The notes beneath the pieces were generated by a model. That model searched no databases, had not been told where the DNA came from, and worked only from the letters and a program-made list of their open reading frames with translations. Shown here piece after piece: positions 18,318-49,582 of a stretch of DNA of 64,000 nucleotides (positions are counted from its first letter, which is position 1; the number at the start of each line of letters is the position of its first letter). Source of the DNA: Candidatus Forterrea multitransposorum CG_2015-17_Forterrea_25_41. Lineage in GTDB: Archaea; Iainarchaeota; Iainarchaeia; Iainarchaeales; CSSED10-239. The stretch lies in NCBI GenBank assembly GCA_009392915.1, contig CP045477.1, forward strand, positions 96,001-160,000, given 5' to 3'. The translations under genes and the position numbers were made by a program.

Positions 18318-19007
18318 ATGATTAAAAATATTATTGAAGTAAATAAACTTGAAAGAATATATTCTAATGGAATTGTTAAAACTTATGCCTTAAAAGACGT
18401 TTCTTTAAGTATAAAACCTGGTGAATTTGTTGCAATTATGGGGCCTAGTGGTTCTGGAAAAAGCACTTTACTTCATCAGTTAGGACTGTTAGATACTCCA
18501 ACTAATGGAAGTATTATTATTGATAATGAAGATGTATCGAAATTAACTGATAAACAAAAAACTACCTTTAGATTAGAAAAATTAGGTTATGTTTTTCAGT
18601 CATATAATTTATTACCAGAACTTAATGTTATTGAAAATGTTTTTTTAACCTCTATGGCTAAAGGTTTAGATCCTAAAGAATATAATTTGAGAGCAAAAGA
18701 TATTCTTGAAAAAGTAGGTTTAAAAGATAGATTGTATTATTATCCTTCTGAACTTTCTGGAGGTCAACAACAAAGAGTTTCTATTGCAAGAGCATTAGTT
18801 AATAAACCTAAAATTTTATTTGCAGATGAACCAACTGCAAATCTTGATTCTGATTCTTCTCAAGATATAATTGATTTATTTAAAAAATTAAATAAAGAAA
18901 TTAATCAAACTATTGTTATGGTAACACATGAATTAGAAGAAGGTAAAAAAGCAGATAGGATAATTTGGATTAAAGATGGTATTCTAGATAAGTCTGTAAA
19001 AGTTTAA
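18318..19007 (+). CDS. ABC transporter ATP-binding protein (MacB/LolD type)
   Basis: GPSGSGKST Walker A, LSGGQQQRVSIARAL signature, ILFADEPT Walker B. Confidence 0.85.
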   Translation: MIKNIIEVNKLERIYSNGIVKTYALKDVSLSIKPGEFVAIMGPSGSGKSTLLHQLGLLDTPTNGSIIIDNEDVSKLTDKQKTTFRLEKLGYVFQSYNLLPELNVIENVFLTSMAKGLDPKEYNLRAKDILEKVGLKDRLYYYPSELSGGQQQRVSIARALVNKPKILFADEPTANLDSDSSQDIIDLFKKLNKEINQTIVMVTHELEEGKKADRIIWIKDGILDKSVKV

Positions 19008-19108
19008 CTATTTATAAATAAAATATTTAATATTTTTATTATAACTATATTTTAAATAAAATTTAGATCTATAGATATTTTTATATATTTTATTAATATA
19101 GTTTATTT

Positions 19109-19618
19109 ATGAAGTCAAGATATATTTTATTAGTTTTAATATTGTTAATTATAATTATAGGTTTTATTATATTTTATAATAAATCAAATTCTAATTATTT
19201 TTTAAAAAATAATATTTTGGATAATAATTTATCTGTAGAAGAAATAAATGCTTTAAACGCAACTTTAAATGATGAATATAAAGCAGAAGCTATCTATCAA
19301 AAAGTTATTAATAAATTTGGAAATGTTCCACCTTTTGTAAATATTATGTCTGCTGAACAAAAACATAGTTCTTCTTTAATTATGTTATATAATAAATATA
19401 ATTTAACTATTCCAGAAAATGATTGGTATAATGAAGTTCCAGAATATGAAAGTGTTCAAGAAGCTTGTAAAGCAGGAGTTAATGCTGAAATTGAGAATGC
19501 TGCTTTATATGATGAAATGATGAAAAATATAACTCATGAAGATATAATTCAAGTTTTTAATTCCTTAAAAAATGCTTCTTTAGAAAAACATCTTCCTGCT
19601 TTTGAAAGATGTTCTTAA
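19109..19618 (+). CDS. DUF2202 ferritin-like domain protein, membrane-anchored
   Basis: N-terminal TM; LNDEYKAEAIYQKV...MSAEQKHSSSL...NAALYDEM...LEKHLPAF matches the DUF2202 ferritin-like pattern. Confidence 0.5.
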   Translation: MKSRYILLVLILLIIIIGFIIFYNKSNSNYFLKNNILDNNLSVEEINALNATLNDEYKAEAIYQKVINKFGNVPPFVNIMSAEQKHSSSLIMLYNKYNLTIPENDWYNEVPEYESVQEACKAGVNAEIENAALYDEMMKNITHEDIIQVFNSLKNASLEKHLPAFERCS

Positions 19619-19799
19619 TTAGTTGTATTAAATTTCATTTTTCTTTGAGGTTCAATTTCCGCCAGAAGCTTTGCTTTTTAATTTATGTTATTTTAATTTA
19701 TTTTTTATTACTTTTAGAAATAAATCTATTTAAATAGTTTATTTTTATATATATGTATTATTCGCGAATAATGTTGGACAAAAATTTTGAGGTGGTTGT

Positions 19800-20474
19800 G
19801 TGTTTGATATCGCAGATTTTCCAAAATTAGAATCTCCCTTTATAAGAAAAACTATTAATGAAAAATATATAGTAACTTTTGAGATTAATCCTAAATATAA
19901 ATGGATTTTTAATAGAAACATTGTTTTAGCTTCAGAAAAGATAGATGGAACTAATGTTTCAATAATTATAAATAAAGGAAAAATAATTGATATATACAAT
20001 AGAAAAAATAAAATTGAAATATTAGCAAATAAAAAATATTTTAGATTTATAGATGGTATCAACTATGCCTTATATAAAGAATTATTTAGAACAAATAAAT
20101 CTATGCAAATATTTGGAGAATTAATTGGGCCAACAGTTAATGGAAATCCCTATAATGAAGTAAGAAACATATGGGTGCCTTTTTCTTACTTAAAAGAAAA
20201 ATGTGAATTTAAATTTTGGAATAAATTTTTAGAAGAAGAAATTGACGGTAAAGATTTAAGCGAAAAAGAAATATTTGAAAAAACATCAAATATTTTTAAA
20301 AATCTTTGGAGTCTTTATTATAGAAGAAAAACAGGCGAAAAGATATTTGCTGAAGGAATTGTATTTTATAATAAAGAAACTGGAGAGATGTGTAAACTAA
20401 GAAGAGATATGTTTGATTGGTATGAAGGAATTAGTCATGATTTTTTTAAAGCTAAAGCAAAAAAAGATCTATAA
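19800..20474 (+). CDS. stand-alone Rnl2-like ATP-dependent RNA ligase adenylyltransferase domain
   Basis: 224 aa; motif I EKIDGTN (KxDGxN), FGELIG (motif III-like), AEGIVFY (motif IV EGxV), CKLRRD (motif V Lys); GTG start 6 nt after SD GAGGTGG. Confidence 0.5.
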   Translation: MFDIADFPKLESPFIRKTINEKYIVTFEINPKYKWIFNRNIVLASEKIDGTNVSIIINKGKIIDIYNRKNKIEILANKKYFRFIDGINYALYKELFRTNKSMQIFGELIGPTVNGNPYNEVRNIWVPFSYLKEKCEFKFWNKFLEEEIDGKDLSEKEIFEKTSNIFKNLWSLYYRRKTGEKIFAEGIVFYNKETGEMCKLRRDMFDWYEGISHDFFKAKAKKDL

Positions 20475-20560
20475 AATGTAATTTTTATAAACATATTTTA
20501 TATTACTCACATCTGTGTATTACTCACAATCTTTTTAAATGTTTTGAGTAATACATATTT

Positions 20561-21496
20561 ATGAGTTATTTATCTAAACTTAAAAGAAATAATAAAACAT
20601 ATTATTATCTTGTAGAAAATATTCCTATATCTAAAGGTAGGCGAAAACAAATTAGAAAATATATAGGGACAATTAAACCTACAGATCAAAAATTATCTTT
20701 AGAACTATTAAAGTTTGAAAAAGAAATTACTTCTAAAAAAAAACAAATGCAAGGATTTACCTATTTAACTAAAGAAGAAATAAAAGAAGTAGATGAAATT
20801 AATTCAAATTTTTGGAAAAAATATAATAAATTATCAAAAACTGAGAGAGAAGAATTTTGGAATAATTTTATTGGAATTTTTGTTTTTAACACAAACTCAA
20901 TAGAAGGTTCAACTTTAACATTAAAGGAAGTTGAACTACTATTATCTGAAAATATATCTCCAAATAGACCTTTAGAAGATGTTTTAGAAGCAAAATCTGC
21001 AAAAAAAGCAATTAATTTTATTTTAAATTATAAATCTGATTTGTCAATAGATTTAATTACTAAAATTCATAAAATATATTTTAAAGAAAGCTTTCCAGAT
21101 ATAGCTGGTAAATTTAAAAGATTAAATAATAGAATAAAAGGATCAAAATTTGATACTACTCCAAAAGAACTAGTTTTAACTGATTTAAAAATACTTATAG
21201 ATAATTATAAAAAATTTAAAAAAGAATTACATCCAATAGAATTATCTGCTTGGTTGCATTGGTCTTTTGTAAAAATTCATCCTTTTCAAGATGGAAATGG
21301 AAGAATTTCAAGATTACTTATGAATTTTATACTTTTTAAAAATAAATATGCTTTAATAGATATTAAAACAAAAGAAAAACAAACATATTTTAATTCTCTT
21401 GAAAAATGTAATTATTTGAATAATGGAAAACCATTAGCTCAAAGATTAGTTAGAAGATTTAAAAAACAGTATAAAAATATATTTTCAAATTTATAG
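20561..21496 (+). CDS. Fic/Doc family protein (class II, self-inhibited AMPylase-like)
   Basis: HPFQDGNGRISR is the canonical Fic motif HxFx(D/E)GNGRxxR; upstream TNSIEGS matches the inhibitory-helix motif (S/T)xxxE(G/N). Confidence 0.8.
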   Translation: MSYLSKLKRNNKTYYYLVENIPISKGRRKQIRKYIGTIKPTDQKLSLELLKFEKEITSKKKQMQGFTYLTKEEIKEVDEINSNFWKKYNKLSKTEREEFWNNFIGIFVFNTNSIEGSTLTLKEVELLLSENISPNRPLEDVLEAKSAKKAINFILNYKSDLSIDLITKIHKIYFKESFPDIAGKFKRLNNRIKGSKFDTTPKELVLTDLKILIDNYKKFKKELHPIELSAWLHWSFVKIHPFQDGNGRISRLLMNFILFKNKYALIDIKTKEKQTYFNSLEKCNYLNNGKPLAQRLVRRFKKQYKNIFSNL

Positions 21497-21525
21497 TTTT
21501 ATTAATTTTTTTTTAAAAGAAAAAA

Positions 21526-46443: not shown

Positions 46444-46518
46444 GGGAGTGTAGCTTAGTCTGGTTGGAGCACTCGACTGATAATCGAGAGGCCGCAGGTT
46501 CGAATCCTGCCATTCCCA
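46444..46518 (+). tRNA. tRNA-Ile (anticodon GAU)
   Basis: GGGAGTG-TA-GCTT-AGTCTGGTTG-GAGC-A-CTCGA-CTGATAA-TCGAG-AGGCC-GCAGG-TTCGAAT-CCTGC-CATTCCC-A; no CCA encoded. Confidence 0.85.
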
Positions 46519-46559
46519 CTTTCTATTTTTATATAGATTTTAAAAAAAGAGGATAATTT

Positions 46560-49450: not shown

Positions 49451-49525
49451 GGAAGTGTAGCTTAGTCTGGTTAGAGCATTGGTCTTATACACCAAAGGTC
49501 GCAGGTTCGAATCCTGCCATTTCCA
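49451..49525 (+). tRNA. tRNA-Ile (anticodon UAU)
   Basis: GGAAGTG-TA-GCTT-AGTCTGGTTA-GAGC-A-TTGGT-CTTATAC-ACCAA-AGGTC-GCAGG-TTCGAAT-CCTGC-CATTTCC-A; the anticodon loop reads C-U-U-A-U-A-C; near-identical backbone to tRNA-Ile(GAU). Confidence 0.75.
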
Positions 49526-49582
49526 CTTTTTTTTAAAAATAAAGCTTTATAAATCTAATTAACTACTATATATTAGATAATT

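Follow-up and report, generated by a model that had tools for sequence, protein, structure and literature searches.

We examined a 64,000-nucleotide stretch of contig CP045477.1 from Candidatus Forterrea multitransposorum (positions 96,001 to 160,000; the window), and in it a gene for a small protein that resembles RNA ligases. The gene lies on the plus strand at window positions 19800..20474. It is complete, with 224 codons plus a stop and a GTG start, and its product is a stand-alone nucleotidyltransferase (adenylyltransferase; NTase) domain of the RNA ligase type. A preliminary description of the sequence had placed a 224-residue ligase at these positions, and an entry in the list of open reading frames (ORFs) matched it exactly. 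A Shine-Dalgarno-like sequence, GAGGTGG (19789..19795, plus strand), lies 4 nt 5' of the GTG, and in an alignment the homologs start at the same place relative to a DFPKLESPF motif. The spacer 5' of the ORF is AT-rich and 181 bp long. Within it, a TATA-like AT-rich stretch spotted by eye (~19738-19760, plus strand) suggests that the gene has its own promoter. We found no second copy of the ligase within the 64-kb window. A metagenome-assembled genome (MAG) of Candidatus Iainarchaeum (Diapherotrites, DPANN; locus L009 in our numbering of ligase loci) carries a gene 100% identical to this one, and the same protein, without a single substitution, recurs in an unchanged context on at least 24 contigs, the longest of 687 kb, that come from many samples.

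We found that the ligase motifs are present and in the expected order. Four motifs quoted in the preliminary description, EKIDGTN (residues 46-52), FGELIG (105-110), EGIVFY (185-190) and CKLRRD (198-203), follow one another collinearly, an order far beyond chance. A KxDG lysine followed by motifs III, IV and V in order is the arrangement by which the covalent nucleotidyltransferase superfamily, which comprises ATP-dependent ligases and capping enzymes, is recognized. We scored invariance in an alignment of 41 homologous sequences (mean column identity 40%). In motif I (19935..19955, plus strand, as are all motifs below), K47, G50 and N52 were invariant. The preliminary description had tied the ligase assignment to conservation of the KIDG lysine; this residue, K47 (codon 19938-19940), was the same in all 41 sequences and is the predicted AMP-accepting lysine. 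Motif Ia, N67-R68 (19998..20003), was invariant in the alignment, with R68 identical in 41/41. In motif III (20112..20129), F105, G106, E107 and G110 were invariant. A motif IIIa-like segment, W125-V-P127-F128 (20172..20183), has an invariant W125 and at least 90% conservation of P127 and F128, and it aligns with the T4 Rnl2 segment upstream of F119/D120. E185 and G186 of motif IV (20352..20369) and K199, R201 and D203 of motif V (20391-20408; core K199-L-R201-R-D at 20394..20408) were likewise found in every sequence. The usual pattern of motif V is K-x-K; here the second basic residue is the invariant Arg, R201.

Two further conserved segments lie at the ends of the protein. The N-terminal segment D6-x-P-K-L-E-S-P-F-x-R16 (19815..19847, plus strand) is at least 90% conserved in the alignment. 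It sits before a beta-hairpin and a helix, all ahead of motif I, and we infer that it is a candidate stand-in for an accessory domain, contacting the gamma-phosphate of ATP or the RNA. At the other end, motif V is followed by a short conserved tail, M-F-D-W-Y-x-G-x-x-H213 (20409..20438, plus strand), in which M-F-x-W-Y...H is at least 90% conserved. The protein stops 11 residues later. With just 21 residues after motif V, the protein lacks a C-terminal domain.

Profile searches placed the protein among the RNA ligases. The Pfam model RNA_ligase (PF09414) matched residues 42-194 with 39 bits (E 1.2e-9; gathering score 27). All 41 aligned relatives also matched PF09414; more distant relatives fall under its threshold. 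Two PHROGs 'RNA ligase' families were matched, phrog_548 (E 4.5e-8) and the short phrog_14301. A database search returned 809 homologs at E<=1e-3, nearly all of 200-245 aa, some of which carry the NCBI label 'RNA ligase family protein'.

Models built for particular ligase families did not recognize the protein. It scored 19.7 bits with the Rnl2 equivalog model TIGR02307 (cut-off 197.15), 14.9 bits with the Rnl5 model TIGR02306, which covers DraRnl and NgrRnl (cut-off 151.15), and 19.3 bits with TIGR01209 for Rnl3, the ~380-aa family of Pab1020 and MthRnl (cut-off 137). With the Pfam model for RLIG1/C12orf29 (PF17720) the window protein reached 12.6 bits against a gathering threshold of 25. PF17720 touched 15 of the 41 relatives and was passed by two of them, P0072 (33.3 bits) and P0091 (26.6 bits).

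We found that the closest known structure is that of a ligase that consists of the catalytic core alone. An AlphaFold2 model built on the alignment (mean predicted local distance difference test score, pLDDT, 93; predicted template-modelling score, pTM, 0.89) is a single alpha/beta NTase fold over residues 14-201 with a disordered end and no extra domain; pLDDT falls from 93 to below 50 across residues 210-224. The best Foldseek match was C12orf29 of Yasminevirus, aligned over the full length (template-modelling score, TM, 0.53-0.55; E 7e-6), followed at lower ranks by NgrRnl (TM 0.41-0.47) and T4 Rnl2 (TM ~0.39). The top six structural matches are all RNA ligases. When the family profile was run against PDB sequences, T4 Rnl2 was found at E 1.8e-6 and NgrRnl at E 0.12; the Yasminevirus C12orf29 chain was not found at E<=1. 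The claim of ligase similarity thus stood in the profile searches (PF09414, PHROGs and T4 Rnl2), and the claim that the protein is an NTase domain only was borne out by its length, the model and the lengths of its relatives.

Comparison with characterized ligases shows how this protein differs from each. RLIG1/C12orf29 (human HsRnl; Yasminevirus homolog, PDB 9c6l/9c6m) has the same minimal single-domain fold, but structure-based identity to the window ligase is only ~15-23%. Yasminevirus C12orf29/RLIG1 is a proven minimal 5'-P/3'-OH RNA ligase, and both RLIG1 and its 242-aa viral homolog work autonomously. RLIG1 homologs have been reported from metazoans, some bacteria and viruses, whereas the clade of the window ligase is mainly archaeal. 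T4 Rnl2, with trypanosome REL1, is the closest solved structure by sequence profile. It shares PF09414 and a collinear set of motifs (I, Ia, III, IIIa, IV and V), and its NTase domain, residues 1-234, is similar in size to the window ligase (PMC4599027). However, Rnl2 proper has a helical C-terminal domain of ~90 aa after motif V, which the window ligase lacks. The hallmark of Rnl5 enzymes (Naegleria, Deinococcus) is an OB domain at the N-terminus, which touches the gamma-phosphate of ATP (PMC7261155); the window ligase has instead ~40 residues before motif I, modelled as a hairpin plus helix, and no OB domain. Rnl3 differs in having an N-terminal domain and a C-terminal dimerisation domain. 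DpRNL of Diplonema papillatum ('deviant RNA ligase 2', 203 aa) is another short PF09414 protein, with a vestigial C-terminal region (PMC4599027). It is eukaryotic and known computationally, and we liken it to the window ligase by description only. The RLIG1-type minimal ligase and DpRNL are the nearest architectural precedents.

What separates families Rnl1 to Rnl6 is the domain that accompanies the catalytic core (PMC7261155). The window ligase falls outside all of them because the flanking domain that defines each is absent. The preliminary description had likened the protein to Rnl2 and DraRnl. This likeness held for motif order and PF09414, but not for the equivalog models or the flanking domains, and the best structural match was RLIG1. 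The clade to which the window ligase belongs has no accessory domains and is unclassified; it stands between the Rnl2/Rnl5-type domain and RLIG1. Neither the PDB nor the literature that we searched yielded a member of it. It is unlikely, in our judgment, that the clade is a seventh kind of ATP-dependent RNA ligase, an archaeal and viral sister of human RLIG1 that is partnered by the toxin-antitoxin protein AbiEii where the two genes are adjacent.

The stand-alone architecture is shared throughout a large family. An exhaustive profile search over 1.84 billion cluster representatives found 574 family clusters (50% identity) at E<=1e-3 and 80 at E<=1e-30, and full-length members are nearly all 197-265 aa long. 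This uniform, domain-only length indicates that the stand-alone NTase domain is the rule in the family and not a truncation in this genome. Members come from Iain-, Aenigmat-, Nanohal-, Woese-, Pace- and Micrarchaeota, Thermoplasmata, Helarchaeota and a few bacterial MAGs, and ~30 IMG/VR viral contigs carry full-length matches. A tblastn search of 50,697 GenBank records of cultured phages gave no match; the viral members are metagenomic IMG/VR contigs only.

Few members carry anything beyond the core. Among 20 members of the longest type scanned for fusions, three contain a LAGLIDADG endonuclease, two of these together with an intein splicing domain, and none contains a kinase, phosphatase or OB fusion. 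The inteins of P0130 and P0140 lie inside motif I, between the G and the S/T-N (EKLHG|C...HN|SNVS and EKLNG|C...HN|TNVS, respectively); P0142 also bears a LAGLIDADG domain. One long member is a DUF4286 fusion. In P0248, a distant member of 273 aa, the ligase domain is fused to an N-terminus that weakly matches ribbon-helix-helix, antitoxin-like models (E 1.5e-4 to 6e-4, below cut-offs).

The immediate neighbor of the window ligase is a gene for a Fic-domain protein, as the preliminary description had it. The local gene order is PadR, a membrane protein, a CARDB-like protein, an FtsX/ABC transporter, DUF2202, the ligase and Fic; beyond Fic are TraB/PrgY (minus strand), a 1192-aa surface protein and a geranylgeranyl reductase. 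The Fic gene (20561..21496, plus strand; Pfam Fic E 2e-19) is part of the context, and its position does not imply partnership with the ligase. In its translation the catalytic motif, HPFQDGNGRISR, is intact, and the motif of an auto-inhibitory helix, TNSIEG, is present. PADLOC models matched it to two candidate families of single-gene defence, PDC-S04 (4.8e-34) and SoFic (1.1e-21). The 86-bp gap between ligase and Fic has repeats of its own and AT-rich promoter-like sequence. Two copies of TATTACTCACA lie in this spacer at a distance of 17 nt (20501 and 20518), together with an imperfect inverted repeat of 36 nt whose arms are at 20499-20534 and 20537-20572. These repeats (20499-20572) might serve Fic as an operator or a promoter.

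The preliminary description also set the ligase in an accessory block, a claim that held only in part. In a closely related strain (L079, NPID01001896.1), positions 1-2539 are 98.8% identical to window positions 18974-21513, and synteny stops 17 bp past the Fic stop codon. However, the wider flanks are housekeeping genes, and we rejected a compositional island around the ligase, the GC content being 0.20-0.26 throughout 15-27 kb. Fic genes recur in the closest clade. Fic is directly downstream of the ligase in L079, immediately upstream in L074 and L075, where the contig edge cuts the gene (the L074 fragment is 42% identical to the window Fic), and 1.3 kb upstream in L011/L078. It also directly adjoins the ligase in L050. 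No AbiEi or AbiEii gene was found anywhere in the 64-kb window. Elsewhere in the window, ARAGORN predicted a tRNA-Ile with anticodon TAT (49451-49526) besides tRNA-Ile(GAT) (46444-46519).

We compared gene neighborhoods across the family. ORFs were called in 187 loci, and removal of near-duplicates at 90% ligase identity left 133 loci (50 genome, 49 metagenome and 34 viral), whose neighbor proteins were clustered. No universal partner of the ligase emerged from the clustered neighbors of these 133 loci. The Pfam families most often found as immediate neighbors in cellular loci were AbiEii (5), AAA_14, radical SAM and PIN (3 each), followed by DUF1016, RhuM, Fic and Pol-beta/MNT NTases (2 each). 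Among 116 rank 1-2 neighbors in viral loci there was no recurrent Pfam family. In a rank test restricted to ORFs of 100 aa or more, we compared genes at rank 1-2 (198) with those at rank 3 or more (474), for families picked after inspection and with no genome-wide background frequency. AbiEi/AbiEii made up 14/198 of the near genes and 3/474 of the far genes (odds ratio 12, p 7e-6). AAA_14-DUF4143 ATPases also lay closer to the ligase (7/198 against 2/474, p 0.004). Fic did not (2/198 against 6/474, p 1.0). The Fic gene next to the window ligase is real, yet it does not reflect a specific family-wide link.

The association with AbiE recurs in distant lineages. AbiE-linked ligases come from at least seven lineages and are only 35-53% identical to one another. 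An AbiE pair lies within two genes of the ligase in L026, L039, L058, L059, L067, L082, L139 and a Thermoplasmata group (L060-L066). The order is AbiEi-AbiEii-ligase in L026, L039, L059, L062 and L063, with a gap between AbiEii and ligase of ~20 bp (L026, L039, L059) up to ~570 bp (L062). It is ligase-AbiEi-AbiEii in L058, a Roizmanbacteria MAG, and the genes are divergent in L060, L065, L066 and L071. In L059, AbiE pairs flank the ligase on both sides. AbiE identity was confirmed by Pfam and PADLOC. Blocks in which a pair directly adjoins the ligase include L039:2580-4617, L059:4440-8551, L026:307-2386, L063:241-2576 and L058:1977-4075.

There is a precedent for such loci among RNA-repair operons. 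The Pfam description of the AbiEii neighbors is 'nucleotidyl transferase'. RlaP (PF10127), a Pol-beta NTase encoded beside a 5'-P RNA ligase, adds one or two nucleotides to the 3' ends of damaged tRNA, which is then sealed (PMC12776372). The AbiE-linked loci differ in that the neighbor in the lineages described here is AbiEii (PF08843) with the antitoxin AbiEi, and the window ligase has neither. A literature search found no paper that ties AbiE to an RNA ligase; Burroughs and Aravind 2016 (NAR 44:8525), the principal survey of the genes that neighbor RNA-repair enzymes, was outside its coverage.

Several other neighbors were seen in particular loci. AAA_14-DUF4143 ATPase genes occur in L014, L016, L052, L069, L076, L082, L086 and L089. 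On a 98.6-kb virus-like contig, Ga0172381_10000091 (L005/L098/L154; L005:3776-7067), a gene for an AAA_33 (polynucleotide-kinase-like) protein nearly abuts the ligase upstream; the contig also has one Metallophos gene two genes downstream of the ligase and a second one upstream. It is possible that these genes and the ligase form a heal-and-seal RNA repair set. A Ro60/TROVE gene is found a few kb from a ligase homolog in one cellular locus (L006:1155-2561) and one viral locus, a possible sign of a connection to RNA quality control. In Pace-, Woese- and Micrarchaeota (L040, L043-L047, L052, L055, L070, L072) the ligase sits in a conserved local block. A 115-aa coiled-coil protein is encoded upstream in 8 of these loci (directly adjacent in 6), a Cys-rich basic protein of 70-90 aa beside the ligase in 7 (directly downstream in 5), and RadC comes next in 5-6; the small block proteins have no Pfam match. 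In one Aenigmarchaeota locus the ligase gene lies between two genes for TRM5/TYW2 tRNA methyltransferases.

By homology with T4 Rnl2, NgrRnl and RLIG1, the window ligase would act in three steps. K47 would attack ATP to form a ligase-(lysyl)-AMP, the AMP would then be passed to the 5'-phosphate of an RNA, and the RNA 3'-OH would attack the adenylylated end, sealing the break. E107, E185, K199/R201 and R68 would provide the contacts to nucleotide, metal and phosphate, and the PKLESPFxR N-terminal segment and the DMFDWYxGxxH tail probably replace the flanking domains of other RNA ligases. Likely substrates are 3'-OH/5'-PO4 nicks in structured RNA, for example broken tRNA loops, as shown for RLIG1. 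A likely role would be repair of RNA damage during toxin or phage conflicts. Several toxin families of the AbiE, PIN, MNT and Fic types act on tRNA or translation factors. A role in conflict repair fits because the family occurs in viruses, its gene context is not conserved, and it is often found beside AbiE, PIN, MNT and Fic genes. The preliminary description had pointed to RNA repair and conflict systems, and we infer such a role more from AbiE adjacency in other lineages than from the window itself. The ligase is likely a mobile single-gene function of DPANN, Thermoplasmata, a few bacteria and viruses, often beside toxin-antitoxin genes.

We favor the notion that the window gene encodes an autonomous ATP-dependent RNA ligase, formed by the NTase domain alone, with a general role in RNA repair, and we give this joint claim a probability of roughly 0.7. 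The specific repair role, taken alone, is more tentative, and we put it at a little below even odds. Several findings weigh against our interpretation. A scan of the ligase protein against PADLOC-DB 2.0 gave no matches. The genes next to the ligase in the window encode none of the enzymes that heal RNA ends (kinase, phosphatase or cyclic phosphodiesterase), and farther out it is surrounded by housekeeping genes (aIF2, ribosomal proteins, Rpo7, Spt4, Alba). In strain L079 the ligase gene has a 1-bp deletion near window position 20203; this may be a frameshift that marks the gene as dispensable, or it may be a sequencing error, and both are compatible with the data. The families in the adjacency test were chosen post hoc, and the loci are partly related in phylogeny. 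Finally, Ho and colleagues reportedly found in 2004 that the isolated NTase domain of T4 Rnl2, which is about the same size, is defective in step 2, and the autonomy of the window ligase is therefore not guaranteed.

That defect raises the prospect of a partial enzyme, one that self-adenylylates and seals pre-adenylylated ends but needs a protein in trans for 5'-adenylylation or substrate binding. The size and domain content, which are those of T4 Rnl2(1-249), and the small Cys-rich basic protein of the Pace-, Woese- and Micrarchaeota loci are consistent with this. We consider it improbable: the best structural matches, RLIG1 and its viral homolog, are autonomous, no partner is conserved across the family, and the strongly conserved N- and C-terminal extensions could fill the role. 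We regard as equally improbable a housekeeping RNA-processing ligase that circularises C/D-box sRNAs or rRNA intermediates, a small replacement for Rnl3 in reduced genomes. Such a function would suit the translation and transcription genes around the window ligase and the tRNA methyltransferases of the Aenigmarchaeota locus, and archaeal Rnl3 is known to circularise C/D-box sRNAs (PMC9014305). However, gene context differs between lineages, the family is also found in viruses and scattered bacterial MAGs, toxin-antitoxin genes are enriched among the neighbors, and the close strain L079 may carry a frameshifted ligase.

It might also be that ligase and Fic form a two-gene module, with a Fic toxin or defence effector countered or completed by the ligase. 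Fic proteins are protein modifiers, and no obvious chemistry joins Fic to an RNA ligase. The position of Fic here, in the closest clade and in L050, and its matches to PDC-S04 and SoFic would agree with a module, but Fic is absent from most ligase loci, it is not concentrated beside the ligase family-wide, and the 86-bp gap contains repeats and promoter-like sequence. We find this quite unlikely, less so only than the prospect that the protein is a minimal DNA ligase or another covalent nucleotidyltransferase, of the capping or protein-AMPylating type. DNA ligases and capping enzymes typically need an OB domain, which the window ligase lacks, and all sequence and profile matches, like the top six structural ones, are RNA ligases. 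This last explanation is very improbable. For an autonomous RNA ligase, our data establish family membership, invariant motifs, fold, stand-alone architecture, taxonomic spread and the statistics of neighboring genes, whereas catalytic activity, substrate and physiological role are predicted.

The result for the window is modest in that relatives already carry the generic database label 'RNA ligase family protein'. Recent work on RLIG1 established that the catalytic core by itself can make up a complete ligase. If active, the clade (574 clusters, mostly archaeal and viral) would extend the core-only design to archaea, and it offers a 220-aa candidate for structure-function work on substrate binding without an accessory domain. 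AbiE toxin systems target tRNA. The repeated adjacency of AbiE offers a way to test whether RNA sealing is tied to toxin systems, and it is a stronger lead than Fic. On the reading judged unlikely above, AbiEii and the ligase would form an 'add a nucleotide, then seal' module for tRNA repair or editing, analogous to RlaP and its ligase, and some AbiE 'toxin-antitoxin' pairs would belong to an RNA-repair system.
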